Below, one piece after another: positions 7,676 to 27,548 of a stretch of 64,000 bases of DNA. The stretch lies in NCBI GenBank assembly GCA_945861065.1, contig CAMASI010000012.1:8139-72138 (forward strand), given 5' to 3'. Below the pieces are notes generated by a model. That model had not been told where the DNA came from and made no database searches. It worked only from the letters and a program-made list of their open reading frames with translations. The DNA comes from Klebsiella pneumoniae (GTDB lineage: Bacteria; Myxococcota_A; UBA796; GCA-2862545). Positions within the stretch are counted from its first letter, which is position 1. Every line of letters begins with the position of its first letter. A program made the translations under genes and the position numbers.

Positions 7676-8208
7676 CCGCCCCGCTCGTCCAAATAGCGGC
7701 GTACGGCGTCATTGCTCTTTCGCAGATTCGGCTCCAACAGTCCGACGACGAACCGCTCCAACGCCGGCGCGAGCTGTTTTGCTAAAAAAGAAGGGACCCC
7801 GGGGATGCGCTCGGGATGCAGGATGAATTCGCCATTGTTCTGGATGACCGTGCACCCCCCCTCGTCGCGAAACACGTTGAGGCCGCGGGCGGTGACCGCA
7901 TCCGGCAGCGCCATCAGCGTGATGTTCCACGAACACCGCCACTTTCCCATGTCCCATTCAGCGCGGTCCACCCAAGACAACATGTCAGGCCTGATCACTG
8001 GCCGCAAGGGCGCAGGGACGTCGCTGCTTGCGCCGTACCAGTGGTTGAGCAGACGAACAACCTGCCCGTCCTCGACCCGCTCCTCAACGATCACCCGGTC
8101 GATGTTGGGCAAGTAGGGCAGCAAGTCGACCAAATGGTCTCGATGGGCCTCGAAAACCGCCTGACGCGGGTACGCAACTTCGTCGGTCACGGTGAACTTC
8201 ATGCCCAC
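7672..8208 (-). CDS. SRPBCC/START-like (polyketide-cyclase fold) protein
   Basis: The size and the pattern FTVTDEVAYPRQAVFEAHRD...RCSWNITL are typical of SRPBCC ligand-binding proteins. It overlaps the downstream hydrolase by 4 nt. Confidence 0.5.
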   Translation of the reverse strand: MGMKFTVTDEVAYPRQAVFEAHRDHLVDLLPYLPNIDRVIVEERVEDGQVVRLLNHWYGASSDVPAPLRPVIRPDMLSWVDRAEWDMGKWRCSWNITLMALPDAVTARGLNVFRDEGGCTVIQNNGEFILHPERIPGVPSFLAKQLAPALERFVVGLLEPNLRKSNDAVRRYLDERGG

Positions 8209-8275
8209 TCTTGACCCCTCTTCGCCCGATTTGCAACCCGCCAGCGCGCCGACAGCCGTGCTACACGCGCGCCCG

Positions 8276-8656
8276 ATGCGCGCTCCTCAGATCCGGACCT
8301 TACGAACGCTCTGTGTCACCTGGCTGCCGCGGGACGCCCTGGTGCCCGTAGACGCAGTCGACGCAGGTGTGGACATCACGCTGATCTGCTGGTTCGATTC
8401 TTTGCCCCGCGCCCACCGGTTGCGTCAACTGGCATTGCTTCGGTCGATCGAAAGCGGATTCGGGTTGGCAAACGGACGCCCCGGGTTGTCTTTTAGCGAC
8501 GCCCTGCCCGATGAACGACGCACATGGCTGGAACGTGTCGCCCGCGGCGCGCTGGCGAATGACTACCACGCGCTGCGTGAAACTGCGGTCCGGGCCTGGG
8601 TGTCCTCCGAGCCCGTGCGCGCCCACCTCCCCCTCCGAACGCAGGAGACACCGTGA
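8276..8656 (+). CDS. Hypothetical protein, translationally coupled to the sulfotransferase
   Basis: Coding-like codon usage. Its stop overlaps the GTG start of the next gene (GTGA at 8653-8656). The start is uncertain (8192 or 8276). Confidence 0.45.
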   Translation: MRAPQIRTLRTLCVTWLPRDALVPVDAVDAGVDITLICWFDSLPRAHRLRQLALLRSIESGFGLANGRPGLSFSDALPDERRTWLERVARGALANDYHALRETAVRAWVSSEPVRAHLPLRTQETP

Positions 8657-9789
8657 GTGTCGATGTGGAAAAACGCTGGTCCACAGACCAGCTCATCACC
8701 GGAATCGAGATCAACGACTGGCTGAAGCTGCTGTCGAAGAACCAATGGAAGGTCGACCCGGTGTACGCCCATCGCGTCGCGTGGGTCAGCGCGTTCTCGG
8801 TGGCCAGCACCGCAGCTGGGCGGTTCGAAGACGCGCGCTACGGCCGGGAACTGGCGTCGATGGAAATCAATCCCGAGCCGCTCTTCCTGCTCGGCCACTG
8901 GCGCAGCGGCACGACCCACCTCCACAATCTGTTGGGACGCCTTCCCGGCCACACCTACCCAACGGTGTACCAGGCCGTGTTCCCCGGCTGCTTCTTGACC
9001 ACGTCGAGTTGGGTCCAGCCCCTCACGGCGCGGTTGATGGGGGGCACCCGTTCCTACGACAACGTGAAACACGGCTGGAACGAAGCCGCCGAAGACGAAA
9101 TCGCGCTCGCCAAGCTGACCGGCATGAGCCCCTACATCGGGTTCATGTTTCCCGGTTACGCCCATCGCTACGAAAAGTATCTCGATTTCGAGGAGTGTTC
9201 CGTCGCCGAACGCACGGCGTGGAAAGACGCATTTCGGTACCTCGTCAAGAAAATCATGCTGGCGACCGGTGGCGACCGCGTGGTCGTGAAGAGTTGCACC
9301 CACACCGCGCGAATTCGACTGCTCCTTGAGCTGTTTCCCAACGCGCGATTCGTGCACATCACGCGCCACCCCTACGAGGTGTATGCCAGCACGATTCACA
9401 TGCGGTCGCACACCGACTGGGAGAATCATTTCCACCTCCCAGAAGGCGACGCGGAAGAGGTTCGCAGCCGGCAGACGCTGACGCTGGGCCAGAAGATGTT
9501 CGAGCGCGTGGTGGACGACCGACGCTTGATTCCCGAAGGAAACCTCGTGGAAATCAAGTACGAAGACCTGATCGGCAACGAGATGGCCCACGTCGAAAAC
9601 ATCTACAAGACGCTTCGCCTGTCCAACTGGGACTCAGCGAAGCCGGTGCTCGCGGGCTACCTCGAAGGTGTGAAAGGCTACAAACGCAACAAACTCAAAC
9701 TCGACAAGGGTCGCCGAGACGAGGTGTTCGAGCACTGGCGAGTCATGTTCGACACCTACGGCTACGAGCGGGAATTCAAGGTCGGTTAA
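8653..9789 (+). CDS. Sulfotransferase family protein
   Basis: PAPS 5'-phosphosulfate loop LLGHWRSGTTHLHNLL, and VVKSCTHTARI (3'-phosphate-binding region). Confidence 0.8.
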   Translation: MSVDVEKRWSTDQLITGIEINDWLKLLSKNQWKVDPVYAHRVAWVSAFSVASTAAGRFEDARYGRELASMEINPEPLFLLGHWRSGTTHLHNLLGRLPGHTYPTVYQAVFPGCFLTTSSWVQPLTARLMGGTRSYDNVKHGWNEAAEDEIALAKLTGMSPYIGFMFPGYAHRYEKYLDFEECSVAERTAWKDAFRYLVKKIMLATGGDRVVVKSCTHTARIRLLLELFPNARFVHITRHPYEVYASTIHMRSHTDWENHFHLPEGDAEEVRSRQTLTLGQKMFERVVDDRRLIPEGNLVEIKYEDLIGNEMAHVENIYKTLRLSNWDSAKPVLAGYLEGVKGYKRNKLKLDKGRRDEVFEHWRVMFDTYGYEREFKVG

Positions 9790-9818: not shown

Positions 9819-10466
9819 ATGCGTTTCTACTTCGACTTTATCTCCCCATTCGCGTACCTCGCAAACAAACGTGTCCACGACCTTGCAGCGCGCCACAACC
9901 GAGCCGTGGAGCTGGTGCCCATCCCTTTCGGCGTGCTGCTCGACCACCACGGACACAAGGGTCCTGCAGAAATCGAAAGCAAACGCATCTACGTCTTCAA
10001 GCAGGTCAGCCGTATTGCAGCCCGCGAAGGCTGGCGGCTCACGCCACCGCCCGCCCACCCCTTCAATCCAATCCTAGCGCTCGCTGTGGCGTCCGTGCCT
10101 GGCCCGAACCAACGCCAAATTGTAGACACCCTGTTTGACGCCGTGTGGGCCGGAGGTCCAGGCGTGGCGCAGGTCGAGCAGATCGTGAATGTGCTCGACG
10201 CCGCTGGGCTTTCCGGACAGCAAGCCGTGGCTCAGGGCGTGGAAGGGCGCGCCCGGGTTCGCGCCCAGGCTACCGAAGCCATCGCGGCCGGCGTGTTTGG
10301 CGTGCCCACCATCCTCGTCGACCGCGAGCTGTTCTGGGGCGTCGACGCATTCCGTGACATCGACGCATTTCTTGGCGGTCGCGACCCCGTAGACCTACAG
10401 GGCCTTCAACGGTGGAAGGACCTGCCTGTAGGCGCCACGCGCAAAGCCGCCTCAAAGGCGGAATAA
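9819..10466 (+). CDS. DsbA-family 2-hydroxychromene-2-carboxylate isomerase-like protein
   Basis: MRFYFDFISPFAYLA...VFGVPTILVDRELFWGVD is the typical HCCA-isomerase/DsbA-like signature. Confidence 0.8.
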   Translation: MRFYFDFISPFAYLANKRVHDLAARHNRAVELVPIPFGVLLDHHGHKGPAEIESKRIYVFKQVSRIAAREGWRLTPPPAHPFNPILALAVASVPGPNQRQIVDTLFDAVWAGGPGVAQVEQIVNVLDAAGLSGQQAVAQGVEGRARVRAQATEAIAAGVFGVPTILVDRELFWGVDAFRDIDAFLGGRDPVDLQGLQRWKDLPVGATRKAASKAE

Positions 10467-10482
10467 GAGCGCCGCGCCCGAC

Positions 10483-12240
10483 CTACCAGCCTGCCGGGAC
10501 GAAACCCGCATCTCGGAACACCTCGTCGCCGTCGAACACCGTCCACAACACCACAGTCTCGGCAAGAGTCTCGGTTGAAAACGGGTCGCGGTCCACGACA
10601 ACAAAATCGGCCCGTTTGCCCACCTCGATCGAGCCTGCGATGTCGTCAAACCCAAGGAGCCAGGCGGCATCCGTCGTCATCGCCCGAAGGGCCGATTCCA
10701 CGTCGGGAAGGCTCTGATCGCCGCGGTCCACGGCACGCGCGATTCCCACAAATGGCGACATTGACGCCACATCGTAATCGCTGGAAAGCGTGATCCGTGC
10801 CCCAGCCTCATGAAGGTCGCGCACCCGATAATTCAGCGTATTCACCCGCTCGGCGCCCACCACGCGGTCGCTGTCATGGAGGAATTCCGGTTCGGTCCAC
10901 CAGCCCGCCAGCTGGATATCGGCGGTGACATTCAATTCGGCAAATCGGGGGATATCCTCGGGATCGACGAATTCTACGTGGGTAATCCGGTGGCGCCGAC
11001 CCAGATCACCGTGCTCCACCCGCGCAGCTTCGATGGCGTCGAGCCCCTCCCGAACACCGCGGTCTCCAATGCCGTGGAGCTGAACGTCGAAACCCGCTTC
11101 TTCCAACTCCGACACATATCGTTTCAACCGTAGGGGATCGAAATAATTGAGTCCAAGCGGATCCGTGATCGCGTTGTCCGTGTACGGTTCGAGCAAGGCT
11201 CCGGTGGTGATCCACACCAAGCCGTCTACATACATCTTCACCTGTCCGAAACGAAGCTTCGCGTCAGGCGCAACATCGTAGTAGGCCTTCAACGTCGCCA
11301 ACTGGCTGTCGTCGTCCTCGTTCGGGTAGGCCCACAATGGCACGTTGGCGCGCACCGTGAGCTCGCCGGCGTCGGCGACTGCGTGCCAGGCCTCCACGTA
11401 GCCCCGTTTCCAGTAACAACGCCCGTCGCCGATGCCTGTCAAGCCGTTCCGATTGGCCTCAGCGAGACCGGCCCGCAGCGCCTCCTCGTTGAGCGCTGGC
11501 ATTTCGGCGTTATTCGCTAACGCCAGATCAAAGGCAGCCTCACTGGCCGCATCCATCAGCAACCCCGTAGGTGTGCCATCGGCTTCACGAAGGATGACAC
11601 CCCCAGGGGGGTCTGGGGTCGTCGCGTCGTACCCAAGAGCCTCAAGCGCAAGCGTGTTCACCCAGGCTGCATGAGACGAAGCCTCCATCATGACCGCGGG
11701 CCGATCCGGAATGACGCTGTCCATCAGGCCCGCCGGACTGCCGGGACTCGACAGCGCCGACCACAGGTCAAAGCCCCAGCCCACGACCCAATCCGATCCG
11801 ACCTGGTCATCCTGGCAGTTTTCCAACGTGCTGAGGTGCGAACTGAGCATTCCATAGCCGTCCACAATGCACGTCCCGCCGGCGGGATGAAAGGCCTCAA
11901 GAATGTGGTTGTGGACGTCGAACAAACCCGGCAACACCGTGGCCCCTTCCAGGTCGACGACCTTCGTGGTTGGGCCGATCCACAGCTCTGGCACGGGTTC
12001 AACGCCCACCCAGACGATTTCGCCGCCACGAATCGCGAACGCCTCGAAACGATTCGATGCGCCATCCAGGGTCACAACCGCCGCCTTGACGATTACCGCA
12101 TCCGCAGGACCGTCCGTTTCGGGGGGCGGCGACGTGGTGGGCGTTGTGGGCGGCGTCGGTGGCAGATCGGCGTCCGACGTGACAATCGGCGCCTTCCCGG
12201 CCGGGTCTGAACTACACGCTGTGAGCACGAGCCAAATCAT
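10483..12240 (-). CDS. Amidohydrolase-3 family metallohydrolase lipoprotein
   Basis: Lipobox LVLTAC. VLPGLFDVHNHILEA carries the HxH metal site. Also VQLHGIGDRG and ITLSSDYDV. Confidence 0.8.
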   Translation of the reverse strand: MIWLVLTACSSDPAGKAPIVTSDADLPPTPPTTPTTSPPPETDGPADAVIVKAAVVTLDGASNRFEAFAIRGGEIVWVGVEPVPELWIGPTTKVVDLEGATVLPGLFDVHNHILEAFHPAGGTCIVDGYGMLSSHLSTLENCQDDQVGSDWVVGWGFDLWSALSSPGSPAGLMDSVIPDRPAVMMEASSHAAWVNTLALEALGYDATTPDPPGGVILREADGTPTGLLMDAASEAAFDLALANNAEMPALNEEALRAGLAEANRNGLTGIGDGRCYWKRGYVEAWHAVADAGELTVRANVPLWAYPNEDDDSQLATLKAYYDVAPDAKLRFGQVKMYVDGLVWITTGALLEPYTDNAITDPLGLNYFDPLRLKRYVSELEEAGFDVQLHGIGDRGVREGLDAIEAARVEHGDLGRRHRITHVEFVDPEDIPRFAELNVTADIQLAGWWTEPEFLHDSDRVVGAERVNTLNYRVRDLHEAGARITLSSDYDVASMSPFVGIARAVDRGDQSLPDVESALRAMTTDAAWLLGFDDIAGSIEVGKRADFVVVDRDPFSTETLAETVVLWTVFDGDEVFRDAGFVPAGW

Positions 12241-12280
12241 GCCAATCCGTAATCCGCAACGCGGGCCTCAGACCAGCGCG

Positions 12281-13741
12281 CTACGGCACGGCAAACTCAA
12301 ATTCCGCGCCGGACGTAGAAACGACCGTGACGTGGTCGGGCTTGCTTGGGAACCATGCGTTCGCTTCGTATTGGGAGCCGAGTGGGGCGTACCGCATGCC
12401 TCCAGCACCGAGGACCCGAAGGGTGTACACGCCGTTGTAGGTACTCGTCGCCTGAATCTTGACGCGGGACGTTGGGGGATCCCAGCGAATCAAGGTCGGC
12501 ACGACCTCTTCCGGAATCACCCCGAGGTCCTGATCGACGATAAAGTACCGAACAACTGGGCCCGCCTCAAGCGGCCCAAAGGTCTGGGCCGTCTGGTCGG
12601 GCCACACGACGGTCACATCCGCGGCCGTATCGCCACCGATGCCCAGGTTGACCACCCGTGAGGAATTTCCGTGCGCCGTATGCTGGCCCAAAACCCACTT
12701 GGCCTGGAATGTAGACGCCGAAACTGCAGACACCTCTGCGCCGACCGCGTTCGTATTGTTCAGTCCCGAGCCACGCAAACGAATGCCCACGGAGTTGTTC
12801 CCCACGCCAGAGTCGTTGCGATAATATCTCGGCAAACCGGCGTGGCTTACGAGGAGCAGGTCGTCGTCCCCATCCAGGTCGAGGTCCGCGGATTGCAGGC
12901 TTCGCCCAGCGACGCCATTTGCAAATGACTTAGGGGCCGCGAAGGAGTCTCCCCGGTTCATGAAGTACATGGCGTCGTCGGCCCCGGTGGCTGCGGTAAC
13001 GGCCAAGTCCTGATTGCCATCGTTGTCGATGTCCAATCCCTTCGCATTCCACGAATTTACCGCGTAATCCAGGCCCAGGCTTGCAGATTGGTCTGGGCTG
13101 TAAGTTCCGTCGCCGCGATTCAGATAGATCGAGGCGCCGGCGGCCGTGAACGGGTCGTTGACCGGATCGTAAACGTCGGACGTCACGAAGTCAGGAAGCC
13201 CGTCTCCATTCACGTCCATGACGTCGCTCCCCATGATGGCCTGATCTGTCGTGCCAAATTCCCCCAAAGGCGCGTCTACCAGGAGATCCGTGAACGAGTC
13301 GCCCAAACCACTGTTGGCGTACAACTGGTCACGGTAGCACATTGCACAGGAGAAGTCCTTGAAGACGTTCCCCGCGAAAATATCCGAATCCCCGTCCGAA
13401 TCGAAGTCGAAGGCGGTCGCGACAAGTGTGTCCCGCGCCGCCGGCCCACCAACCCCGGCGGACACAGTGACATCGCGGAATCCCATGCCGGGGCCGTTCA
13501 TGAGCAGGCGATTGGTCTTATCGACCGGCCCGGTGGACCCGTCGAAGTTCATGGCCCAGGACGTCACGTAGATGTCGAGCAGGCCGTCTCCGTCGAAGTC
13601 GGCAATTGCCGCGCTGGTGTTTCTCCGCCCTAAGGGATCTTCGATTCCAGAGGCGAACGAAATGTCAGTGAAATTCGCGTTTCCGTCGTTACGGAACAAC
13701 TGATTGGCGTGCCCCGCCGGTAAGTAAAGGTCATTCGTCAC
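12281..13741 (-). CDS. CRTAC1-like FG-GAP/VCBS repeat protein with an ASPIC/UnbV C-terminal domain
   Basis: Repeated D.DGDG..D motifs (ADFDGDGLLDIYV, DVNGDGLPDF, DIDNDGNQDL, DLDLDGDDDLLL) followed by GIGGDTAADVTVVWPDQTAQTF. No signal peptide is seen at the annotated start. Confidence 0.7.
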   Translation of the reverse strand: MTNDLYLPAGHANQLFRNDGNANFTDISFASGIEDPLGRRNTSAAIADFDGDGLLDIYVTSWAMNFDGSTGPVDKTNRLLMNGPGMGFRDVTVSAGVGGPAARDTLVATAFDFDSDGDSDIFAGNVFKDFSCAMCYRDQLYANSGLGDSFTDLLVDAPLGEFGTTDQAIMGSDVMDVNGDGLPDFVTSDVYDPVNDPFTAAGASIYLNRGDGTYSPDQSASLGLDYAVNSWNAKGLDIDNDGNQDLAVTAATGADDAMYFMNRGDSFAAPKSFANGVAGRSLQSADLDLDGDDDLLLVSHAGLPRYYRNDSGVGNNSVGIRLRGSGLNNTNAVGAEVSAVSASTFQAKWVLGQHTAHGNSSRVVNLGIGGDTAADVTVVWPDQTAQTFGPLEAGPVVRYFIVDQDLGVIPEEVVPTLIRWDPPTSRVKIQATSTYNGVYTLRVLGAGGMRYAPLGSQYEANAWFPSKPDHVTVVSTSGAEFEFAVP

Positions 13742-13992
13742 GCCCGCGTCCTGCGCAAGGAACTGTGGTGGTCCTCAAACGCAACGGCCGACTCCGCGAT
13801 GTCGTCGGCGAACTCGGACGGCCTCCTCTGAACCTTCCGCGGCCGTACGACACCGACGCGGCGGCCGCCCGCCGACGGCGCTTGGGCGCCCGGTGCCAAC
13901 GGCTACCAACGGGTTTGGATCACACCCTGAGGGGTCGTCGGCCTTGATCTGCCCCCCATTCCATGAGAGGGTGAAACAGCCTCAGGAACCTC

Positions 13993-15039
13993 ATGCCCGT
14001 TCACAGCCAGCAGCAAGGGACCACCCCAGCCCCACCCACCACGTCGACCTCAACGTCCACGACGACCGATGGGCAAAACCAGCTCGGTAACGACGCCGTC
14101 CAGCAACAACTTCAGGCCGTGAGCCCTGGCCGACTGAGTTGGACCGGGGCTTTGGGCGAAACCCTCGGCGGCAAACTCTACGACGCGATGGCGCCTCAAC
14201 TCACAGACGACAAACTGCTCGGACACGCGAACAGCATCGTCGCCGCCGCCATCGAAGCGCTGCGGGGCGAGGTCAACGGCAGCGTGACCCCTACCGACCA
14301 AGAAGCGGCCGCGCTGTTCGTCACCCACCTCGACGCCGCGATGCGCACCGCAGCGCGCCAAGCGGTGGTCGCGTCCGGTCTCAGCCAAGGGATCCGTGAC
14401 TTCGCAGACGCCCACCCCTTTGAAGTCGCGCTGGCAGCAGTGGCCGGTGCCGTCGCCTTCGTGTTGTCCAACCAAGACATTCCGTTGCTTTCCACCAAAC
14501 TTGGGCTTGGGGGTGGCCATGGCCTCGTGGTCGGCATCGATCCCGGTCGCACGTTGGCGCTCACCGTCGAGCAGGTCCGCGTCGGCTACACCTTCTCCGG
14601 CGACAACCTGGCCGCGCAGCTCACCGCCGACGTGTACCCAGACGGCCACGCTGTCGCCGGCAACGTTTCCGTCAACCCGACCGAAGACAGCAGCGTGGAC
14701 CTGAGCGGCAGCCATACCGATCGCGCGGGAACCCAGCTTTCTCGCGTGGACCTGCGCTACAACCGACCGGAACTCAGCGCGGGCCTCGGGTGGCAGAACC
14801 AAGTCGGCGGGCCAACGCCCGGCCAAAGTCTGACCGGGTCCATCAGTCAGCGGGGTGCTCCAGGTTCCGTTCTCGGCCAAGCCAGTGGCCTGTGGCACGA
14901 AAGCGGCGCATGGAACGCGGGCCTCGGCGTCGGACAAACCCAAGGCAATGCCAGCTGGTCGGTCGAGGGCTACACTGGACAGACCTCCGCCGGGACGATG
15001 GACACAGGCGTACGCGCGATGTTCCGCCTGCGTTTCTGA
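13993..15039 (+). CDS. Hypothetical protein with a T/S-rich N-terminus, a GN.AVQQQL motif and a beta-rich C-terminus ending in ...FRLRF
   Basis: ORF with coding-like composition. The C-terminal alternating pattern and terminal Phe resemble an outer-membrane beta-barrel signature, but there is no N-terminal signal peptide. Confidence 0.45.
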   Translation: MPVHSQQQGTTPAPPTTSTSTSTTTDGQNQLGNDAVQQQLQAVSPGRLSWTGALGETLGGKLYDAMAPQLTDDKLLGHANSIVAAAIEALRGEVNGSVTPTDQEAAALFVTHLDAAMRTAARQAVVASGLSQGIRDFADAHPFEVALAAVAGAVAFVLSNQDIPLLSTKLGLGGGHGLVVGIDPGRTLALTVEQVRVGYTFSGDNLAAQLTADVYPDGHAVAGNVSVNPTEDSSVDLSGSHTDRAGTQLSRVDLRYNRPELSAGLGWQNQVGGPTPGQSLTGSISQRGAPGSVLGQASGLWHESGAWNAGLGVGQTQGNASWSVEGYTGQTSAGTMDTGVRAMFRLRF

Positions 15040-15626
15040 CCCAAAACCACGGCAAGCGCGAGTCCGACAACCCCGAGCCCAGGCGACGCGCTGCCGTCAC
15101 ACGCACAACCCTGCGAAGCCTCCCCTTCCAAGGAGGCGGTATCCACTGGCGCCGTCGTATTTGTCGACCCCACCCGCAACGCAATGTCGGCACACTGGTA
15201 GTACAAATCGTTGGTCCCGGCCTCGTACGGCGGCTTGTCGAGCATCAACTGAATCAGCTGCAACGTGCAGTTCTCGCATGGCGTATCAGGTAGGGTGACC
15301 TCCACGCTGAATACGCCGTCGTCCTGGTCCGGGATTTCGTCCAACAAAACCCCATCATTCACATAGAAATCGTCCGTCGTCTTCGGGTCCTCAAACGAAT
15401 CGTCACCGTCTTCGTCAAACGCGATGCGGTACGTGGAAGGGTGGTCGATGGTCTCGTGCCAACGCACCCGAATCGTTTCGCCGGGCGCATACACGGTCAC
15501 ATCGTCGCCCCGTTGATGATCCCCTGCCCCGCACGGTCCGTCCTTCAACGAGTCCGTCACGGGGCTCGGTTTGTCCATCTCGATATGGGCCAAAGCGACT
15601 GAAACCAATGTAAGCACCCAAGCCAC
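14970..15626 (-). CDS. Secreted LPMO-like (histidine-brace-type) protein with a MYXO-CTERM-like sorting tail
   Basis: GTG start at 15626, 6 nt after GGGAGG. The signal peptide VAWVLTLVSVALA is followed by HIEM, giving a predicted N-terminal His. Also WHETIDHPSTYRIAF and YYQCADIAL. The tail is GCACDGSASPGLGVVGLALAVVLGQKRRR. Confidence 0.6.
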   Translation of the reverse strand: MAWVLTLVSVALAHIEMDKPSPVTDSLKDGPCGAGDHQRGDDVTVYAPGETIRVRWHETIDHPSTYRIAFDEDGDDSFEDPKTTDDFYVNDGVLLDEIPDQDDGVFSVEVTLPDTPCENCTLQLIQLMLDKPPYEAGTNDLYYQCADIALRVGSTNTTAPVDTASLEGEASQGCACDGSASPGLGVVGLALAVVLGQKRRRNIARTPVSIVPAEVCPV

Positions 15627-15713
15627 GTGCAACCTCCCGGTCGACGGCGCTCTAGCCCCGACTGCGGGGCGTCGCCCACGAATCAGGCTAGACCGCCAGC
15701 CGCCGGAGGCCAC

Positions 15714-17138
15714 GTGTCCGAATTCCGCACGCGAATCGAGGAATACCTCAGCTCGTCGGACCACCTTTCACGCCGCCACATCCATCCGCGCCTGCTGAAG
15801 ATGTTCGAGCTCGGCGGCATGTCAGTGGCCTTTACCCGCGCTGACGGTCCCTATCTGTACGACAAAGACGGCAACCGGTGGCTCGACTTTCTGGCCGGCG
15901 GCGGGGTCTATTACCTCGGACGCAACCATCCCCGCATCCACCAGGCCCTCATCGACGTCCTGTCGATGAACCTCCCCAACCTCGGGGTCGGCAGCGCCTC
16001 CGCGCTCGGCGGCCTGTTGGCGGGCAAGCTCATCGAACATGCCGGCCCACACTTCTCGAAGGTTGTGTTCGCCAACGCGGGCAGTGAGGCCACCGAAGTG
16101 GCACTTCGTTTCGCCCGGCAGGTCACGCGCCGCCGCCGTTTCTTGTTCGTCGAAGGTGCATTCCACGGCCGTTCCTACGGCGCCATCAGCGTGTGCGGTT
16201 TCTCGCAGATGCGTACGAACATCGAGCCCGCGATGCCTGTGTGTACGCCGATTCCACCGAACGATATCGACCGATTGCGCCAAGAACTTCGCTACGGCGA
16301 CGTCGCCGCCTTCATCTTCGAACCCGTGCAGGGCATGACCTGCAAGGTGCTCGACCCCGACTACCTGCGGGAAGCTGAGGCACTCTGCCGCCAGCATGGA
16401 ACCTTGCTCATTGCCGACGAAGTGCAGACCGGCCTCGGACGCTGCGGTTCGTGGTTCGCCACCACCGGAATGGGCGTCCATCCCGACATCATGACAGTGT
16501 CAAAGACGCTGTCCGGGGGCCAAGCGCCTGTAGGCGCGGTCCTCATCAGCCACGAAGTCCATGAACGGGTCTACGGCAGCTCTTCGTCCGAACTCGTGTA
16601 CTTCTCCACCTTTGCCGAGAACAATTTGGCAATGGCGGCGGGCCTCGCCACCATTCAAGTCCTGGAGGAGATGGACGCCCCCAACCTGGCCGCAACCAAG
16701 GGCAAGCTGTTGCGCGACGGATTGGACGAAATCCTCGGCCGCTACGACTGCGTGGACCGCATCGAAGGCGCCGGGTTGATGCAGACGATGTACTTCCGCG
16801 ACAGCGCCAACGTCTCCCTGGGAACACAGCAGAAAGCCATGAAGGCGTTTGACTCCAGCGCGTTCGCCGCGTCCATTCACGTGGACTTGTTCAGCCGCCA
16901 GCGGGTGGTGGCCCAACTTCCCGGCCCCGGGCTCGACGCCATCAAGGTCTTACCGCCTTTGATTTCGTCAGACGAAGACATCACCTTCTTCCTCAATGGC
17001 CTCGATGACTCGCTCGCCGAGTTGTACGCCCGTCGCGGACCGCTGTTCGCGCTCGGCCAAGGCGTTGCCAAGAACACGGTCGGCAAAGCGCTGGCACCGT
17101 GGATGAGTCGATGGACCGGCGAAGGGGCGGAGAACTGA
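15714..17138 (+). CDS. Class-III (omega-type) pyridoxal-phosphate aminotransferase
   Basis: GTG start 4 nt after GGAGG. Motifs ANAGSEATEVALRFAR, LLIADEVQTGLGRCG and DIMTVSKTLSGGQAPVGAV, with the Schiff-base Lys codon at 16503-16505. Confidence 0.85.
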   Translation: MSEFRTRIEEYLSSSDHLSRRHIHPRLLKMFELGGMSVAFTRADGPYLYDKDGNRWLDFLAGGGVYYLGRNHPRIHQALIDVLSMNLPNLGVGSASALGGLLAGKLIEHAGPHFSKVVFANAGSEATEVALRFARQVTRRRRFLFVEGAFHGRSYGAISVCGFSQMRTNIEPAMPVCTPIPPNDIDRLRQELRYGDVAAFIFEPVQGMTCKVLDPDYLREAEALCRQHGTLLIADEVQTGLGRCGSWFATTGMGVHPDIMTVSKTLSGGQAPVGAVLISHEVHERVYGSSSSELVYFSTFAENNLAMAAGLATIQVLEEMDAPNLAATKGKLLRDGLDEILGRYDCVDRIEGAGLMQTMYFRDSANVSLGTQQKAMKAFDSSAFAASIHVDLFSRQRVVAQLPGPGLDAIKVLPPLISSDEDITFFLNGLDDSLAELYARRGPLFALGQGVAKNTVGKALAPWMSRWTGEGAEN

Positions 17139-17139
17139 C

Positions 17140-19782
17140 ATGCGCACCACTCCCGCCCAATTCGAGCAGATCCTGGCGGCCGCGCCAGACCTCGCGGCCC
17201 GGTTCCTTCCCCGCGCCTCTACGGGGCCCACGTGGGCCCGGGCGCTCGGACCTCACCTGTGGGACCACAACGGCGACCGTTGGCTCGACGCTGCCGCTGG
17301 CGCCGCGTTCCTCGGGCGAAATCACCCGGGCGTGTCCCAAGCACTGGCAGACGTCCTGTCGATGGACCTTCCCAACCTCTGTGTCGTCAACGCATCAGCA
17401 CTCGGCGGCATGCTCGCTGGCCGGCTGATCGACCGAGCCGGTGGTGGTTTCGGCAAGGTATCCTTCGCCAACTCCGGCTCAGAAACGACCGAGGTCGCCC
17501 TCCGTTTCTGTCGTCAGATCACGCGTCGGCGTCGCTTTTTGTACCTGAAAGGCGCGATGCACGGCCGGTCGACGGGTGCCATTAGCGTCTGCGATTGGCC
17601 CGAACTGCGGGCTAATTTCGAGCCGGCGATGCCCACCACGATGGCCGTGCCGATCGACGACATCGCCAAACTCCGGAAAGAACTGCGCTTCGGCGACGTC
17701 GCAGGCCTCATCGTCGAACCCGTGCAGTCCATGACTGGGCACGCCCCGGACGCCGCTTGGTTGCGCGAAGCCGAATTGTTGTGCGAACAATACGGTACAA
17801 TTCTCGTCGTCAGCGAAGTCATGACCGGTCTCGGACGCACTGGGTCCTGGTTCCACAGCATTAGCAGTGGTGTGCGCCCAGGGATATTGACGGTCGGTGG
17901 TGCACTCTGCGGCGGGCAGACGCCGGTGGGGGCCGTGCTGGTCTCGGAGCCCATTTACGAACGCATTTATGCCGGATTTTCGTCGGGCCTCATTTACTTC
18001 TCAACGTTCGCGGAAAACAATCTGGCAATGGCAGCCGGAATCGCAACGCTCGACGCGCTCGAAGCCATGGATGCGCCCACAGTCGCTGCGGACCTCGGGG
18101 CCGCGCTTCACTCCGGACTTCAAGGGCTCGCGGCACGTGCAGGCGCCAGTGTACACGGCGCCGGATTGCTCGCCCACCTGCACCTTCCGGCCGAAAACGG
18201 CGCTGCCGCAACGCGGGTCGCCCAACGCATGGCCGACCAACATATTGCACTCCCGCCCAGCCCTCCCGGGTCGGACATCCTGAGGTTTCAGCTCCCGGTG
18301 GTCGCGGAACAATCCGACATCGCGGACTTGCTCGAATCCCTGGAAAACGCGCTCTTCGACCGGATTCCGCCCAAACGGACCGCTTCCGGCCCTCCGGAGC
18401 TTGAAACGGACGTGATCGGAGAGGTTCCAACCGCGTCCGCACACGACGCCTCGTCCGGCCCAGTGTTGACCGACGTGGACATCCTCGTTGTCGGCACCGG
18501 GCCTGGCGGTACCAGCGCAGCCATCGCGTTGGCCGAAGCGGGTCGACAGGTCCTCATGGTGGAGGCCGGTAACGGTAGTCCTGTGTTGTGGGACGGTGGG
18601 CTTCGTGCCACCCGTTCCGCCCTGCCCGCGCCGTCGATTCGCGGAATCGGCGGTGGCATGACGGTCGCAAGTCTGTGGACACGCCCCGACGGGCACAGCC
18701 TTCAGCGTTGGCGCGACGAACACGGCCTGCGCGACCTGGACGCCGACGGGCTGGCAGCGCACGCGACCGCGATCGAAACATGGTGGGACGGGGTTCCTCC
18801 CGTGGCCCCCACAGACGCGCGCGGACTGCGCTTCTCTGAAGCGCTCGGGGCGCGGGATCTGGCAGCGGAACCGGTGCGGATCGCGCCTACCTTTCAAGCC
18901 GACCGTCTCGCCCCCGTATTGGCAGCCGGCGGTACAATCATCGGAAACGTCGAGATCACGGCCTTGTTGGTCGATCAGGGGAGAGTCGCGGGAGCGACCG
19001 GAACCCGCCCCGACGGTAGCCACGTCCGCATCCACGCCCGTCACACCGTGCTCGCCGCAGGAGCCGTCGGTACCGCACTCCTCCTTCAAGGTCACGCGCC
19101 GGTCAGCGACCTGCGATTTCATCTGGAGGGCTACCTCCTGGCCCTGCTCCCAGACACGTTGGGCCCCTGGCCGGGGCCACTCGACGCAGCGCGCACGACC
19201 GCATGGCGTCAGCATGGTTTCGACGTGGACGTCGTACAACCCAACGTCGCCGACATCGCCAGCCGCTTCGGCGCGGAGCCCCGGGCGCTCAAGCGTGCGC
19301 TGAAGAAACTCGACCGCATGGTCGCACTTCGGGTGCGCGGCGACGCAGAAGGCTCGACCGGTCGTGTGCGATCAGGCCGAACCGGCTTGGTTCTCGATTG
19401 GGCGCCCACACAGGCCGACGTGGACCGCATGGTCATGGGTCTGACCGAAGCAGCGCGTTTGTTGGTGACGATGGGCGCGGAAACCGTCTGGGCAGGCGCG
19501 TCGGGCCTCCCCGAAGACTGCTCACCGGAAGATCTGGTGGTTGCCCTGACCACGGGCCGTTTTGCGGCCAACGACCTTGGGCTACGTGCCATTCACCCCC
19601 ACGGAACTGCAGCGATGGGTTCTGTGACACGGAAGAACGGCGCCGTGCTGGGCATCGACGATTTGTGGGTCGCCGACGCAAGCCTGTTGCCAAGCAGTCC
19701 AGGCGCCGACCCCGTCGTCACCGTCATGGCGCTTGGACACGCAGTCGGTTGCGCCATCGCTGCGTCAGGTACCGCTACGTAG
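17140..19782 (+). CDS. Fusion protein: an aminotransferase-III-like domain lacking the PLP Lys and Asp, joined to a GMC-family FAD oxidoreductase
   Basis: The N-terminal half is paralogous to the upstream gene (ANSGSETTEVALRFCR, FSTFAENNLAMAAG). It reads LVVSEVMTGLGR and ILTVGGALCGG where the upstream gene has DEVQTG and TVSKTLSGG. The C-terminal half has DILVVGTGPGGTSAAIALAEAGRQVLMVEAG and HPHGTAAMGS...LWVADASLLPSSPGADP. Confidence 0.8.
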   Translation: MRTTPAQFEQILAAAPDLAARFLPRASTGPTWARALGPHLWDHNGDRWLDAAAGAAFLGRNHPGVSQALADVLSMDLPNLCVVNASALGGMLAGRLIDRAGGGFGKVSFANSGSETTEVALRFCRQITRRRRFLYLKGAMHGRSTGAISVCDWPELRANFEPAMPTTMAVPIDDIAKLRKELRFGDVAGLIVEPVQSMTGHAPDAAWLREAELLCEQYGTILVVSEVMTGLGRTGSWFHSISSGVRPGILTVGGALCGGQTPVGAVLVSEPIYERIYAGFSSGLIYFSTFAENNLAMAAGIATLDALEAMDAPTVAADLGAALHSGLQGLAARAGASVHGAGLLAHLHLPAENGAAATRVAQRMADQHIALPPSPPGSDILRFQLPVVAEQSDIADLLESLENALFDRIPPKRTASGPPELETDVIGEVPTASAHDASSGPVLTDVDILVVGTGPGGTSAAIALAEAGRQVLMVEAGNGSPVLWDGGLRATRSALPAPSIRGIGGGMTVASLWTRPDGHSLQRWRDEHGLRDLDADGLAAHATAIETWWDGVPPVAPTDARGLRFSEALGARDLAAEPVRIAPTFQADRLAPVLAAGGTIIGNVEITALLVDQGRVAGATGTRPDGSHVRIHARHTVLAAGAVGTALLLQGHAPVSDLRFHLEGYLLALLPDTLGPWPGPLDAARTTAWRQHGFDVDVVQPNVADIASRFGAEPRALKRALKKLDRMVALRVRGDAEGSTGRVRSGRTGLVLDWAPTQADVDRMVMGLTEAARLLVTMGAETVWAGASGLPEDCSPEDLVVALTTGRFAANDLGLRAIHPHGTAAMGSVTRKNGAVLGIDDLWVADASLLPSSPGADPVVTVMALGHAVGCAIAASGTAT

Positions 19783-20577
19783 CCGGGCCACCAGCCCCTC
19801 ACATAACGCGCGGATTCCCTCGTCTTCAATCAGGCCCCGTCCCCGGCCTACCGAAGAGGTGTGGAGGTGGGCCACCATGGCCGGGTCCCATGCTGCGCCG
19901 AGCCAGCCAAACAGTGGCGCCAAAACTTCTACGGGTTTGCTCACGACATCGGCATATTCGACGACCCGAACGCGCTCATGAAACGCCAACTCCTGCGTCT
20001 CGAAGAGGCGGTTCCGGGCGTACCAAAACAACGCCGCGCCATCAAACGGCGTCAAATCATCCCGAAAATGGCGAAGCACTTCGCCGACGAGTGCCGCAGA
20101 CAGGCCCTCGCCGCGCCAACCCAATCGCTCGGTTTCCCCATCCCGAAGGCGGCGAATCAAATCGTTTTGATGGGCTCCCCATTTTTCGACGGCCGACCTT
20201 GCGACGTCTTCCGGCTGCCTCCAAATCCACACGACACGACACGACGGAAAACGCTCGAGCAAATGCACGGCCCGCTGTGAGTCCGCCAAGGCGTGAAAGG
20301 CGACGAGCGGCGCACCATCCCGGCGGATGATGTGCTCCAACACGTCGTCCTCCGCCAGTTGGGCGTTGCTGCCGTTCCGCCGCAACGGGTAGGCGGGGTC
20401 CGGGCGCATGCCGTACATCGGGTCGCGCTTGAGGTGATTGTGCGCCCATACTGAGGGGGAGCGCTCCAACACCTGCGTGAGCATTTGCGTGCCTGAACGT
20501 TGGCAGCCCAACACGAAAACGGGCACGCTGTTGCCTACCGGAGCAAGCCGATGGGCAAGCCGACGACGTGCCCGCAT
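19765..20577 (-). CDS. Sulfotransferase family protein
   Basis: VFVLGCQRSGTQMLTQVL is the PAPS-binding loop. The start was moved to MRARRRL (20577) to avoid overlap with the upstream gene. Confidence 0.7.
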   Translation of the reverse strand: MRARRRLAHRLAPVGNSVPVFVLGCQRSGTQMLTQVLERSPSVWAHNHLKRDPMYGMRPDPAYPLRRNGSNAQLAEDDVLEHIIRRDGAPLVAFHALADSQRAVHLLERFPSCRVVWIWRQPEDVARSAVEKWGAHQNDLIRRLRDGETERLGWRGEGLSAALVGEVLRHFRDDLTPFDGAALFWYARNRLFETQELAFHERVRVVEYADVVSKPVEVLAPLFGWLGAAWDPAMVAHLHTSSVGRGRGLIEDEGIRALCEGLVARLRSGT

Positions 20578-20636
20578 CCACTGGTGGGCGAGTCGTTGGG
20601 GCACACGAGTCAAACTAGGTGTCAGGACTGCCACAG

Positions 20637-21989
20637 CTAAAGCGCCGGCAAATTCTGGGCTAGATCGGTCACCAATGGCGCCGACAGAACGACCTGCGGT
20701 TCCAACGCAGCCCACAAGGCCTGAGCAATCGGGTCCGCGGGGTCATACAAGTCCGTCGTCTCGGTGGGGTCGGCGGCCCGGTCATACATGTCTACAGCCC
20801 CCGACCAGGAATATTCCATGCGGTAATCCCCCATTCGTACCGCTTGACGGGGCAACAGTCGGGTGACCGTCGACGAGAAGATCGGCCTGTCATAGGCCGC
20901 TTCACTCACCGGGATTCCGGTCACCTCCGCCGGGACATCTATGCCGTACAGTTTGAGCAACGTGGGTGCAAGGTCAATGGCCGACGTCGGCTCGTTCCAC
21001 GTTCCTTGCACGATATTTTTCGCCCAGAAAAGCATCAATCCGTCGTTCTCCTCGGGGCCAAGTTGGTAGGCGTGGCCTTGGTAACCGTGCTCAAAAAACC
21101 CCTCGCCGTGGTCATTCCACACCACCACCAACGTGTCCTCCAAAAGGCCGGCCGCGGCCACATCGATCCACATGGCTTCGAGCAGATTGTCCGTCCATTG
21201 TAATTCACCGTCATAACGAACGCGAAGGTGTTTTAGCAGGAGGTCCTGCTCCGCCTCGGTCATCGAGCCCCACTCCGCTATGGCCTGGTACTGTTCGTCT
21301 TTGTTGGCCAGGTCCCACGGCACGTCCGCCAATTCTTCGAGTCCGCTTAAGAACTCGACCGGCGGGTTGTAAGGCGCATGCGGCTCCTTGATGTGGAGGT
21401 GCAGGAACCAGCGGTCCACAAGTCCTGCGTTCCTGGCACTCTCAAGGCTCGTAATTCCCTCCGCTGAAATATTGAGGGCGGCTGCATTCGTGGGCAACCA
21501 CTCCTCGTCGAAGCCCTGGGTGCTTCGCCATTCCGGGCTGTACCAGGAGTTGCTGCTCACGACGATGCTATAAAATCCAGACGGCCGTAGCCAGTCCGGC
21601 AGCATCGGCGTGCCTTCGGGCATGGGCTCGCGAAACTCGTTGGACAATCTCGGCTCAAACCCATTCTCTTCGTGGGTCCGACCCAATAGATTTCCCGTCG
21701 TTCCCGCAAAGGTCCAGTTCGAAAGGGTTTGGTGTTCTGTCAGCGCGTAGCCGGAATCGTGCAGGCCATCGAGGAAGTCGGTGAGGCCCGTTCCACCATA
21801 GGCCTTCAACGAATCCCTGCGAAAGGTGTCCACCGAGATCCACAACAGGTTCTTCGGGACAAATCCATAGAAATTCGGCGTTGTTCCTATCGGATCGCCA
21901 TAATCTGCCGGGTTGACAGGCACCGGCGGCGGCGTAGGCTCACCCTCACCGCAGCCGGATAGAAAGGCCATCCACAACAAAGTAGGCAT
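20637..21989 (-). CDS. Sulfatase-like (alkaline-phosphatase superfamily) lipoprotein with a degenerate formylglycine motif
   Basis: Lipobox AFLSGC. LLWISVDTFRRD carries the metal-binding Asp, and VVWNDHGEGF is also present. The position of C/S-x-P-x-R reads SNWTFAGTTG, with no Pro or Arg. Confidence 0.7.
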   Translation of the reverse strand: MPTLLWMAFLSGCGEGEPTPPPVPVNPADYGDPIGTTPNFYGFVPKNLLWISVDTFRRDSLKAYGGTGLTDFLDGLHDSGYALTEHQTLSNWTFAGTTGNLLGRTHEENGFEPRLSNEFREPMPEGTPMLPDWLRPSGFYSIVVSSNSWYSPEWRSTQGFDEEWLPTNAAALNISAEGITSLESARNAGLVDRWFLHLHIKEPHAPYNPPVEFLSGLEELADVPWDLANKDEQYQAIAEWGSMTEAEQDLLLKHLRVRYDGELQWTDNLLEAMWIDVAAAGLLEDTLVVVWNDHGEGFFEHGYQGHAYQLGPEENDGLMLFWAKNIVQGTWNEPTSAIDLAPTLLKLYGIDVPAEVTGIPVSEAAYDRPIFSSTVTRLLPRQAVRMGDYRMEYSWSGAVDMYDRAADPTETTDLYDPADPIAQALWAALEPQVVLSAPLVTDLAQNLPAL

Positions 21990-22040
21990 GCACTCGTTGT
22001 AGCCCGGCGGCCGGGCCACCGCGCAAATCTGGAGTGGCTC

Positions 22041-22862
22041 ATGACCCTTGATCAACTCGTGACGGGCGTTCGCCCAGGCGATTTCGCCGTATTCGACGCG
22101 GACGGCACCCTCTGGACCGGTGACGTCACAGAATCGCTATTCGCCTCGCTGGTGCAACGGGACCTCAGGTTCGACCGGCTTCCGGACTCGCTCCAGCCGT
22201 ATCCAGCGCACCCCGGTGAAGACCCGTTCTCGTACTACTTGCGAATCACGAAGGCAGACATCTCGCTCGGCTATGCCTGGATTGCCTCCGCTTTCGCTGG
22301 CTACAGGCTCGGCGACCTGGTGGAGAGGCTCGAAGCCCTTCAGGAAGAGGCAAGGCCCCCCAGCGGCCCGCACGGCCCGATTGCCGCACCGCACGTCCGG
22401 CCGGAAATGGTCGCACTTCGTGCCGCGCTGGAGGAGCGGGGATGTGCGTGCTGGATCGTCAGCGCGTCCCCTGAGCCGCTCGTGCGCTGGCTCGCAACCC
22501 ACCCGCGTTTCGGTGCAGGATTCAACCCGGCCAGAATCATCGGTGTAGACGTGCTACTGCACAAGTCGGACGCGACGCTGTCTTGGGGCAGCTGCCGTGA
22601 ACACGGGACCGTTCCAGACCTGGCTGCTTTGCACAGCTACAAGATGGGCACGCTGCTCCGGTCACCCAATCCGTGGTTCGAGGGCAAGGTCGCCGCCATT
22701 CGGCGGTGGATCGCACAGACCGCAAATCCGTGGCTCGTCGCCGGCGACAGCCTCAACGACGTGCCCATGTTGTCGATCGCGCATCATCGGGTTTGGTGGG
22801 GAAGCGGTGCACCACCCGCTGAGCTGGGACCCGTGTCGGTCGGTCTAGTCCAGACCAAGTAA
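22041..22862 (+). CDS. HAD-superfamily hydrolase (subfamily IB-like)
   Basis: FAVFDADGTLW carries the DxDGT nucleophile motif. Also WIVSASPE and VAGDSLNDVPML. Confidence 0.75.
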   Translation: MTLDQLVTGVRPGDFAVFDADGTLWTGDVTESLFASLVQRDLRFDRLPDSLQPYPAHPGEDPFSYYLRITKADISLGYAWIASAFAGYRLGDLVERLEALQEEARPPSGPHGPIAAPHVRPEMVALRAALEERGCACWIVSASPEPLVRWLATHPRFGAGFNPARIIGVDVLLHKSDATLSWGSCREHGTVPDLAALHSYKMGTLLRSPNPWFEGKVAAIRRWIAQTANPWLVAGDSLNDVPMLSIAHHRVWWGSGAPPAELGPVSVGLVQTK

Positions 22863-27371: not shown

Positions 27372-27450
27372 AACACACCCCGTGCCGTGGAGTATCCCAC
27401 AGCCCGGGTGACCGTCATCGTAGCGGCGCTCCCAGGTTCGAGCAAATCAG

Positions 27451-27548
27451 CGGCGGGCCATGGGAATCGAACCCACCGGGCGCCGCCTCTCAGCGTGCCC
27501 CGACCGGTTTTGAAGACCGGGACCTGCACCAGCATGGCACGGCCCGCC
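27451..27548 (-). tRNA. selC: tRNA-Sec (selenocysteine, anticodon UCA)
   Basis: The reverse complement reads GGCGGGCC-GU-...-CCGGU-CUUCAAA-ACCGG-(about 27-nt variable arm)-GUGGG-UUCGAUU-CCCAU-GGCCCGCC-G. It has an 8-bp acceptor stem with a 5-bp T stem (the bacterial 8/5 Sec fold), a 4-nt D loop, a UCA anticodon flanked by U33 and A37, and a G discriminator. No CCA is encoded. Confidence 0.85.

Follow-up and report, generated by a model that had tools for sequence, protein, structure and literature searches.

A degenerate aminotransferase–flavoprotein fusion as a candidate non-catalytic partner of an intact class-III aminotransferase in a Myxococcota genome

This study concerns two adjacent genes in a 64,000-nucleotide stretch of contig CAMASI010000012.1 (assembly GCA_945861065.1, GTDB lineage Myxococcota_A), which we refer to as the window and to whose numbering all unprefixed coordinates belong. 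Gene 1 encodes an intact class-III aminotransferase (AT); gene 2 encodes one protein in which a dead AT domain (AT*), stripped of the residues that handle pyridoxal phosphate (PLP), is joined to a degenerate flavoprotein domain of the GMC family (GMC*). Comparison with relatives, together with analogy to better known enzyme pairs, leads us to propose that gene 2 is a prozyme-like non-catalytic partner of gene 1: the two products would form an AT/AT* heterodimer with a single live site, and the flavoprotein remnant would be structural or weakly active. We regard the chance that this proposal is correct as about even.

The case begins with four positions in the PLP site. An initial reading of this DNA from its letters alone (the sequence-only reading) had claimed that the Asp that contacts the pyridine nitrogen of PLP was replaced in gene 2 by Ser, and the Schiff-base Lys by Gly. 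Both claims hold – the residues are Ser225 (AGC, 17812-17814) and Gly254 (GGT, 17899-17901) – and an alignment of 122 AT domains confirms that they occupy the catalytic columns. To these we add Met228 (17821-17823) in place of Gln, and Met140 (17557-17559) in place of the PLP-stacking Phe. The Schiff-base column is Lys in 121 of the 122 family members, and the Phe, Asp, Gln and Lys columns deviate solely in gene 2 (Met, Ser, Met, Gly) and in its orthologue P0002 (Tyr, Ala, Leu, Lys). In the structure of the putrescine aminotransferase YgjG, the PLP ring lies between Phe180 and Val273, with its pyridine nitrogen in contact with Asp271 and its Schiff base on Lys300; Gln274 and Glu243 show strict conservation, and Gly150 and Thr151, along with Thr332 of the other subunit, hold the phosphate (PMC4244111). 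With Lys, Asp, Gln and Phe all lost, AT* is – judged by its residues – devoid of PLP chemistry, being unable to form the internal aldimine or to bind PLP canonically.

What AT* keeps is as telling as what it has lost. In class-III aminotransferases, which are dimeric, each active site draws on both subunits (PMC4244111), and AT* retains Gly113/Ser114, Glu193, Leu284 and Thr289 (18004-18006). Leu284 is equivalent to YgjG Phe327* and Thr289 to the other-subunit Thr332*, the latter column being invariant in 122 of 122 AT domains. Across 120 live ATs, 145 columns reach 90% conservation or more, and of these live members retain 132-145, gene 2 retains 107 and P0002 retains 103; the losses in AT* cluster in active-site motifs. 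Those common to both dead domains (numbered as in gene 1 for live residues) are the N-terminal segment, the GGGV active-site loop, Phe150, Gly207, Asp235, Gln238, Ser263 and the C-terminal loops. The fold itself appears sound: in the AlphaFold2 (AF2) model the core of AT*, residues 30-405, is confident, most 10-residue blocks having a predicted local confidence (pLDDT) above 90, and the top Foldseek matches are PigE, YgjG and OAT, with TM-scores to the targets of 0.8-0.9.

Gene 1 carries the complete PLP set (K264, D235, Q238, F150 and GSE, as aligned with PigE and YgjG) and retains 139 of the 145 conserved family positions. Its Schiff-base Lys264 (AAG, within TVSKTL) sits at 16503-16505, just where the sequence-only reading had put it, and Asp235 (GAC, 16416-16418) lies within ADEVQTG; the two align with PigE and with D271 and K300 of YgjG. 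The Aminotran_3 profile (PF00202) matches gene 1 at E 4.9e-77 (259.7 bits against a Pfam cut-off of 30.5), and the most plausible start is the GTG at 15714, with GGAGG at 15705. We infer that gene 1 is the live transaminase of the pair and that transaminase activity stayed with it. The start of gene 2 had been placed 2 nt past the stop of gene 1, and so it lies: the stop ends at 17138 and the ATG is at 17140, with one base between. The junction is also 1 nt in a second lineage, L001 (AT end 9999, fusion start 10001), and so tight a spacing suggests that the two genes are translationally coupled. A promoter/terminator scan of 15000-20900 gave no signal beyond shuffled expectation.

A separate observation concerns the motif '..K.LPP', in which at least 90% of live AT family sequences have Lys and PigE has Arg. 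The position corresponds to residue 411 of gene 1 (about 16944-16946) and residue 382 of gene 2 (18283-18285), and it is Arg in both dead domains. By its motif the position should be the one at which class-III enzymes have an Arg paired to the carboxylate of the substrate (YgjG R426, OAT R413); the Lys of the live enzymes may reflect an unusual amino donor.

Gene 2 is a single open reading frame (ORF) of 880 aa on the + strand, running from the ATG at 17140 to 19782. Its AT sequence is 48% identical to that of gene 1 over 434 aligned positions (E 6e-129). Pfam places Aminotran_3 at residues 33-405 (E 2e-53, 182 bits) and GMC_oxred_N with GMC_oxred_C across residues 589-866, so that all three families anticipated from the letters alone (PF00202, PF00732 and PF05199) match above their cut-offs. 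The claim that the frame runs unbroken into a GMC domain is likewise sustained, with GxGxxG at 18493-18510 and HPHGT present. In the full-length AF2 model (pLDDT 82.5) both domains are predicted to fold. A sequencing or assembly artefact was considered and ruled out, because the ORF and its substitutions recur in independent NCBI, ENA and Logan assemblies: the same 880-aa ORF was found on 13 contigs, three of these places having been examined, and the five residue differences leave the catalytic positions unaffected. Automated annotation would call gene 2 an 'aminotransferase class III-fold PLP-dependent enzyme', like its relatives in NCBI, yet normal PLP use should be impossible for it.

The degenerate form occurs in three lineages only: the window together with the near-identical contigs L002-L004; L001 (GCA_005801925.1); and probably L010. 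In L001 the order is sulfotransferase, live AT, AT*-GMC*, the fusion being P0002 (803 aa); an intact paralogue thus adjoins the dead fusion in the window and in L001 alike. L010 is a 2.9-kb contig whose ORF (P0121), open to the contig start, encodes the same shortened GMC* and is followed by a sulfatase-family gene. In a tree of AT domains the two dead domains (gene 2 and P0002) are monophyletic in 200 of 200 bootstraps, on a long branch. The sequence-only reading held gene 2 to be a clear duplicate of gene 1. The two are indeed paralogous, but the duplication is old: a recent tandem origin is not supported, identity of about 50% being that of old paralogues and a position sister to the gene 1 pair appearing in 2 of 200 replicates.

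Rates of change differ sharply along the locus. Between the window and L001, identity is 80% for the sulfotransferase, 81% for the live AT, 65% for AT* and 38% for GMC*; in normal modules of the kind described below, GMC identity is 42-50% where that of the AT is 52-58%. The corresponding ratios of nonsynonymous to synonymous substitution rates (dN/dS, by Nei-Gojobori, and rough since dS is saturated at 1-2.7) are 0.145, 0.145, 0.195 and 0.47, and for GMC* they come to 0.24 between the window and L010 and 0.67 between L001 and L010; dN of GMC* is 2-3 times that of the AT domains. AT* is under purifying selection (dN/dS about 0.2). The ORF, its fold and especially AT* appear from these comparisons to be kept by selection in at least two, and probably three, lineages.

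These figures bear directly on the idea that gene 2 is a non-functional relic of duplication and fusion that is on its way to being lost. Catalytic residues have gone from both domains, the protein carries several deletions, and it evolves faster than the products of the genes around it; moreover, near-identical strains differ in gene 2 by five nonsynonymous and six synonymous changes, as against none and two in gene 1. But the ORF of 2.4-2.6 kb is uninterrupted in two lineages, as is its 3' part in the third, and since identity is by now only 38-65% such integrity would hardly have survived without selection. The predicted fold is confident, and AT*, at a dN/dS of about 0.2, is better conserved between window and L001 (65% identity) than the neighbouring sulfatase-family gene (59%). 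The intact ORF in three lineages, the purifying selection on AT* and the retention of its trans-acting residues argue that gene 2 is no dying pseudogene, and we consider the relic explanation very unlikely.

To understand what GMC* once was it is necessary to look to its live relatives. Searching with gene 2 uncovered 29 full-length AT-GMC fusions (961-1130 aa, 33-37% identity), all with live AT domains, as well as many stand-alone ATs (485-545 aa, 45-55% identity). The fusion itself is therefore common and, the AT columns being invariant outside gene 2 and P0002, its AT domain is normally live. Enhygromyxa salina, a culturable organism, also encodes members of the AT family (P0070, P0073). 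The few fusions that come with source names belong to metagenome-assembled genomes (MAGs) of Myxococcota, Myxococcales or Polyangiaceae. Around them lies a conserved module with a fixed gene order: a small ORF of 125-156 aa, a Sulfotransfer_3 protein of 378-392 aa, an AT and a GMC protein of about 500 aa. The AT and GMC genes are separate in L008, L009 and L091 and fused in L005 and L007, and a sulfotransferase homologue stands directly upstream of the AT or fusion in L001, L005, L007, L008, L009, L091 and L011. Fused members occur here and there across the AT tree, and in L008 the end of the AT gene and the start of the GMC gene share 4 nt, from which it seems that the fusion probably arose repeatedly. 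One locus (L006:3132-6524; P0028, 1130 aa) is a triple fusion with a gamma-like small subunit N-terminal to AT-GMC, and there an AAT gene (PF03417) takes the upstream place of the sulfotransferase.

The live GMC proteins point to a dehydrogenase. A Cx5Cx3C motif is kept in at least 90% of 31 live GMC relatives, and the small ORFs of the module match Gluconate_2-dh3 (PF13618) weakly to clearly, one of them above threshold. In the Burkholderia FAD-glucose dehydrogenase (BcGDH), Cys212, Cys218 and Cys222 – the same spacing – ligate a 3Fe-4S cluster that takes electrons from the flavin (FAD), and the enzyme cannot do without its small gamma 'hitchhiker' subunit (PMC6719666). Given the shared motif and the Gluconate_2-dh3-like ORF, the ancestral partner of the AT is best seen as an FAD/3Fe-4S dehydrogenase with a small gamma subunit, rather than the kind of oxidase for which the sequence-only reading took the flavoprotein. 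At the loci examined the module has no cytochrome c gene beside it, and reading through the small ORFs brought no twin-arginine leader to light, although no dedicated haem-motif or Tat scan was run; on these grounds the enzyme may tentatively be placed in the cytoplasm.

GMC enzymes of this type oxidise alcohols. The nearest enzymes to the module ATs, PigE and YgjG, convert aldehydes to primary amines and back. A plausible, if conjectural, pathway for the module would take an alcohol by way of the aldehyde to the amine and include O- or N-sulfation. A search of the literature found no characterised AT-GMC fusion, nor such a module with a sulfotransferase.

Sulfotransferase genes accompany class-III ATs elsewhere. 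A pattern scan of genome contigs – with, for example, DE[VI]Q[TC]G, which is generic to class III – returned mostly unrelated transaminases, together with L011, an Oligoflexia MAG with a sulfotransferase and AT pair in which the sulfotransferase is 65% identical to that of the module. Sulfotransfer_3-like genes stand beside class-III AT genes in L012, L058 and L067 (30-33% identity to the module's sulfotransferase) as well as in L011, the hosts including a cyanobacterium, a Limisphaerales MAG and a Pseudomonadota MAG. The pairing of AT and sulfotransferase may thus extend beyond Myxococcota.

Set against its live relatives, GMC* emerges from the alignments as the most eroded part of the gene 2 protein, and as something other than a typical intact GMC oxidase. 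GMC_oxred_C (PF05199) matches well (E 1.2e-17, 65.2 bits, cut-off 24.6), while the match to GMC_oxred_N (PF00732; 32.6 bits, cut-off 23) covers only profile positions 133-198 of 218. Of the 99 columns that are at least 90% conserved in the 31 live proteins, live members keep 88-99, P0121 keeps 54, the window 51 and P0002 37; the 48 positions lost in the window comprise 40 substitutions and 8 gaps. A 19-aa deletion between Arg580 and Ile581 (18877-18882) takes out the Cx5Cx3C motif. The catalytic Asn position, which aligns with N485 of cholesterol oxidase, holds Asp857 (19708-19710), and the GGGSxxN signature reads GGGMTVAS, its Asn lost (a gap in one alignment, Ala510 in another). P0002, in L001, is also without the catalytic His, replaced by Thr, and the second Gly of GxGxxG. 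Even so, the window protein keeps its GxGxxG (GTGPGG, residues 452-457, 18493-18510) followed by an acidic Glu475, and HPHGT (His819, 19594-19596) and ADASLLPSSPGADP are both found. A domain-only AF2 model is confident (pLDDT 83.8, predicted TM-score 0.86) save for a flavin-adjacent loop, residues 478-510, and the top Foldseek matches listed are all of the GMC family: fructose dehydrogenase, cholesterol oxidase, pyranose and C-glycoside oxidases and BcGDH.

This mixture of loss and retention is the ground on which a more ambitious idea must be judged, namely that AT* is a dimerisation scaffold that docks a functional flavoprotein oxidase onto the live transaminase, giving a channelled cascade from alcohol to aldehyde to amine. 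In its favour, the window GMC* retains GxGxxG, Glu475, Asp846 and His819 in a confidently predicted fold, its dN/dS against L010 is 0.24, and a gene for a small gamma-like subunit is still present. The 29 live-AT fusions imply that physical coupling of the two activities has been selected in this family, and natural fusions of a transaminase with an aldehyde-generating domain exist, TamH being an example (PMC9594044). Yet the 3Fe-4S motif, the electron exit route of enzymes of this type, has been deleted; the catalytic Asn has become Asp and the GGGSxxN Asn is gone, as are 48 of 99 family-conserved positions, and the low-confidence loop lies next to the flavin. In L001, GMC* has neither the catalytic His nor a GxGxxG Gly and evolves at a near-neutral 0.47-0.67, and oxidase activity therefore cannot be what maintains the arrangement there. 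Of the earlier suggestion of a dead-domain scaffold docking a working oxidase, the first half fits the data – dN/dS of AT* is about 0.2, Thr289 and Leu284 are kept, and the junction is 1 nt – and the second does not, the oxidase being eroded (51 of 99 columns, Cx5Cx3C deleted, Asn to Asp). We consider the complete cascade unlikely for the window; from sequence, a coupled alcohol-to-amine route is much better supported for the 29 live-AT Myxococcota fusions.

It could also be that gene 2 has acquired a function apart from gene 1, for instance as a ligand-binding or regulatory AT* homodimer or as a flavoprotein with a new substrate or acceptor, and that adjacency is merely historical. AT* and GMC* have preserved ORF and fold through many changes at otherwise conserved residues; position 382 of AT* is Arg, against Lys in the live family; and genes for a sulfatase-family lipoprotein and for a HAD hydrolase have come to lie near the fusion in the degenerate lineages. 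We found no positive sign of a new active site, however, and the window (Ser/Met/Gly) and L001 (Ala/Leu/Lys) carry different substitutions, a pattern that looks more like relaxed loss than like convergence. The 1-nt junction with gene 1, present in both lineages examined, counts against an independent role as well. An independent role for gene 2 strikes us as decidedly unlikely.

Returning to our proposal that gene 2 is a non-catalytic partner of gene 1, we find it the most economical account of function because class-III enzymes are dimeric, AT* has kept its trans-acting residues, and the window and L001 share the 1-nt junction. Genes 1 and 2 would, on this account, represent a lineage-specific remodelling of the conserved Myxococcota module. 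The organisms of the window, L001 and L010 would share an ancestor in which a further AT copy had come into frame with the dehydrogenase gene. Transamination would have stayed with gene 1; the fused copy would have shed the Lys, Asp, Gln and stacking Phe that serve PLP in cis, and the attached dehydrogenase its Fe-S site and about half its conserved residues. Co-translated with gene 1, gene 2 would then supply the second subunit of an AT/AT* heterodimer with one live active site, to which GMC* would be a structural, at best weakly and differently active, appendage and not an efficient aldehyde-feeding oxidase.

Several points weigh against this proposal. The shortened N-terminal segment of AT*, and the change of its GGGV loop to AAGAA with a 2-residue deletion, could alter the dimer interface too. 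The dead-domain branch attaches at the base of the family or beside P0032, and is sister to the gene 1 pair in just 2 of 200 replicates. The dN/dS values come from saturated dS. In the window and L010 lineage, moreover, the retention of GxGxxG, Glu475, Asp846 and the catalytic His819, along with a dN/dS of 0.24, means that GMC* may possess some flavin-dependent activity. Finally, our view of the dehydrogenase is limited to 64 kb of genome and a second, intact copy elsewhere is possible. A stronger and more specific version – that the products of genes 1 and 2 are obligate partners in a heterodimeric class-III aminotransferase, in which one site is live, the other is dead and the dead subunit carries a repurposed flavoprotein, and that the wider module is an undescribed pathway from alcohol to amine to sulfated product with a naturally fused dehydrogenase-transaminase – we put forward tentatively, as possible rather than probable.

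Parallels with known systems are instructive. PigE of Serratia (4PPM) and the putrescine aminotransferase YgjG-PatA (4UOX) match both AT sequences best, in sequence as well as in structure; the NCBIfam PigE model gives E 1.4e-94 for gene 1 and 6.7e-68 for gene 2, with PDB 4ppm at E 4.5e-57 and Foldseek rank 1, although at 318 and 230 bits both genes fall far below the equivalog cut-off of 850. Arg426 of YgjG is Lys in the live module ATs, and gene 2 lacks in addition the Lys, Asp, Gln and Phe of YgjG. For the flavoprotein, the relevant comparisons are the FAD-glucose dehydrogenase of B. cepacia (6A2U) and the fructose dehydrogenase of Gluconobacter (7W2J/8JEJ): the live GMC relatives share the Cx5Cx3C spacing of BcGDH and have a Gluconate_2-dh3-like ORF in the operon, and in Foldseek fructose dehydrogenase is the top match of GMC* and BcGDH ranks 19-23, at a low structural-alignment identity of 13-16%. 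Unlike either enzyme, gene 2 has its Cys motif deleted.

The best PDB sequence match of the C-terminus of GMC* is an N485D mutant of Streptomyces cholesterol oxidase (3GYI), in which His447 aligns with His819 and the mutated residue 485 with Asp857. The match spans about 50 residues by sequence and gives no evidence for a steroid substrate; that candidate was set aside, the matches being either restricted to the C-terminal catalytic motif or far under the model cut-off (79 against 850 bits).

The mechanism that we propose has its closest likeness in serine palmitoyltransferase, where, in the LCB1/LCB2 heterodimer, a homologous subunit without the PLP Lys and other catalytic residues pairs with its live paralogue around a single active site (PMC3794620). 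There, too, a dead fold-type-I paralogue accompanies a live partner. But LCB1/LCB2 belongs to the alpha-oxoamine synthase subfamily, is eukaryotic and membrane-bound and carries no fused redox domain, and its heterodimer has been demonstrated where that of genes 1 and 2 is proposed. Trypanosomatid prozymes supply a second parallel: S-adenosylmethionine decarboxylase (AdoMetDC) and deoxyhypusine synthase are activated by dead paralogues (PMC5201418, PMC3663545), which selection has kept as partners of the live enzyme. Their folds and cofactors are unrelated to those considered here. With regard to the fusion, PtTamH of tambjamine biosynthesis is a class-III transaminase fused to a redox domain that delivers its aldehyde (PMC9594044). 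The 29 live-AT Myxococcota fusions seem to follow the same logic as TamH and PigE, with a flavin dehydrogenase replacing the NAD(P)H thioester reductase; in gene 2 of the window, unlike TamH and PigE, both fused domains are degenerate.

The surroundings of genes 1 and 2 (Table 1) preserve the remainder of the module. The product of the gamma-like gene is 48% identical to that of L001:7066-7443 and 22-31% identical to those of small ORFs in the same position in L005-L009, and the end of the gene overlaps the sulfotransferase start by 4 nt. The sulfotransferase, 80% identical to its L001 orthologue, is 52-66% identical to those of L005, L007, L008 and L009. In the window alone the module is split: the five genes that lie between sulfotransferase and AT are absent from that position in L001 and every other module locus. 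The last of them, on the - strand at 14970-15764, has weak LPMO_10/BIM1-like copper-binding matches and is called in the public assemblies as a shorter gene of 218 aa; at its 5' end it runs into the long upstream extension of the gene 1 ORF (15627-15713).

Table 1. Features of the gene 1 and gene 2 locus and its neighbourhood in the window.
Feature	Position	Strand	Basis or remarks
Gamma-like small subunit, 154 aa, related to Gluconate_2-dh3 hitchhiker proteins	8192..8656	+	tblastn match with the L008 small subunit
Sulfotransferase, 378 aa, Sulfotransfer_3	8653..9789	+	Pfam E 7.5e-32
Five inserted genes: DsbA-like, amidohydrolase, FG-GAP, 348-aa unknown, LPMO_10/BIM1-like	9819..15764		Pfam; outside the module
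Gene 1, intact class-III omega-type aminotransferase, 474 aa	15714..17138	+	Pfam, NCBIfam, alignment
Gene junction	17125..17142	+	GGAG 17129; TGA 17136-17138; 1 spacer base (17139); ATG 17140
Gene 2, AT*, residues 1-407	17140..18360	+	Pfam, 122-sequence alignment, AF2, Foldseek
Gene 2, linker, residues 408-438	18361..18453	+	Predicted disordered, pLDDT <50; without stop, frameshift or internal Met
Gene 2, GMC*, residues 439-880	18454..19782	+	Pfam, alignment, AF2, Foldseek
Convergent sulfotransferase-like ORF	19765..20715	-	Sulfotransfer_3 E 1.8e-14, partial; overlaps the gene 2 stop by 18 nt
Sulfatase-family (alkaline-phosphatase superfamily) lipoprotein	20637..22055	-	Pfam Sulfatase E 7.9e-22
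HAD-IB family hydrolase	22041..22862	+	Pfam; 47% identical to the L001 orthologue, also beside the sulfatase-family gene there

Downstream, the convergent sulfotransferase-like ORF is called as 253 aa in L002, and L001 has an unrelated 218-aa ORF in its place, leaving its link to the module uncertain. A sulfatase-family gene lies 3' of the degenerate fusion in all three lineages – directly in L010, with one gene between in the window and L001 – and is not found there in normal modules; the HAD gene comes next in the window and L001, and the L010 contig ends at that point. In the sulfatase-family product the C/S-x-P-x-R formylglycine motif is missing, and an internal Met is followed by an LSGC lipobox; the protein is probably exported and may act on phosphate esters rather than sulfate esters. 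A cycle of sulfation and desulfation by way of this 'sulfatase' was entertained, and is weakened by the missing formylglycine motif and the lipoprotein signal.

Further features of the window lie outside this locus. A 1508-aa protein with DUF4215 and FG-GAP repeats is encoded on the - strand at 22845-27371, and just downstream of its gene, at 27450-27548 (-), is a selenocysteine tRNA with anticodon TCA (ARAGORN; Rfam RF01852, 68.5 bits), which implies selenoprotein synthesis in the window organism. At 58286-61681 (+) a 1131-aa repeat protein carries at least six putative metal-binding motifs of the MopE type. The window also encodes a Der GTPase, whose homologues with a named source come mostly from Myxococcota or Myxococcales, a few being labelled Alphaproteobacteria; the best match beyond the cluster of the organism itself has 76% identity, in keeping with an uncultured and fairly divergent member of Myxococcota.

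Pseudoenzyme partners are, as a kind, already known; what appears to be new here is a pseudoenzyme partner that is doubly degenerate and fused. To our knowledge there is no bacterial class-III aminotransferase of the prozyme type, and our search of the literature on pseudoenzymes and on AT-GMC fusion found none. Were the partner role to prove true, genes 1 and 2 would provide a clear bacterial case of an obligate-dimer PLP enzyme that was duplicated and of which one copy was fused and ceased to be catalytic, and a case in which the live, the intermediate (L001, where the Lys is still present) and the fully dead states can be compared. Beyond the pair itself, the analysis brings to light a conserved and uncharacterised module of Myxococcota, in which a transaminase stands beside, or is fused with, a 3Fe-4S flavin dehydrogenase and is accompanied by a sulfotransferase. 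Natural dehydrogenase-transaminase fusions are relevant to those who build alcohol-to-amine cascades, and it is the live-AT fusions, rather than that of the window, that are the relevant ones.

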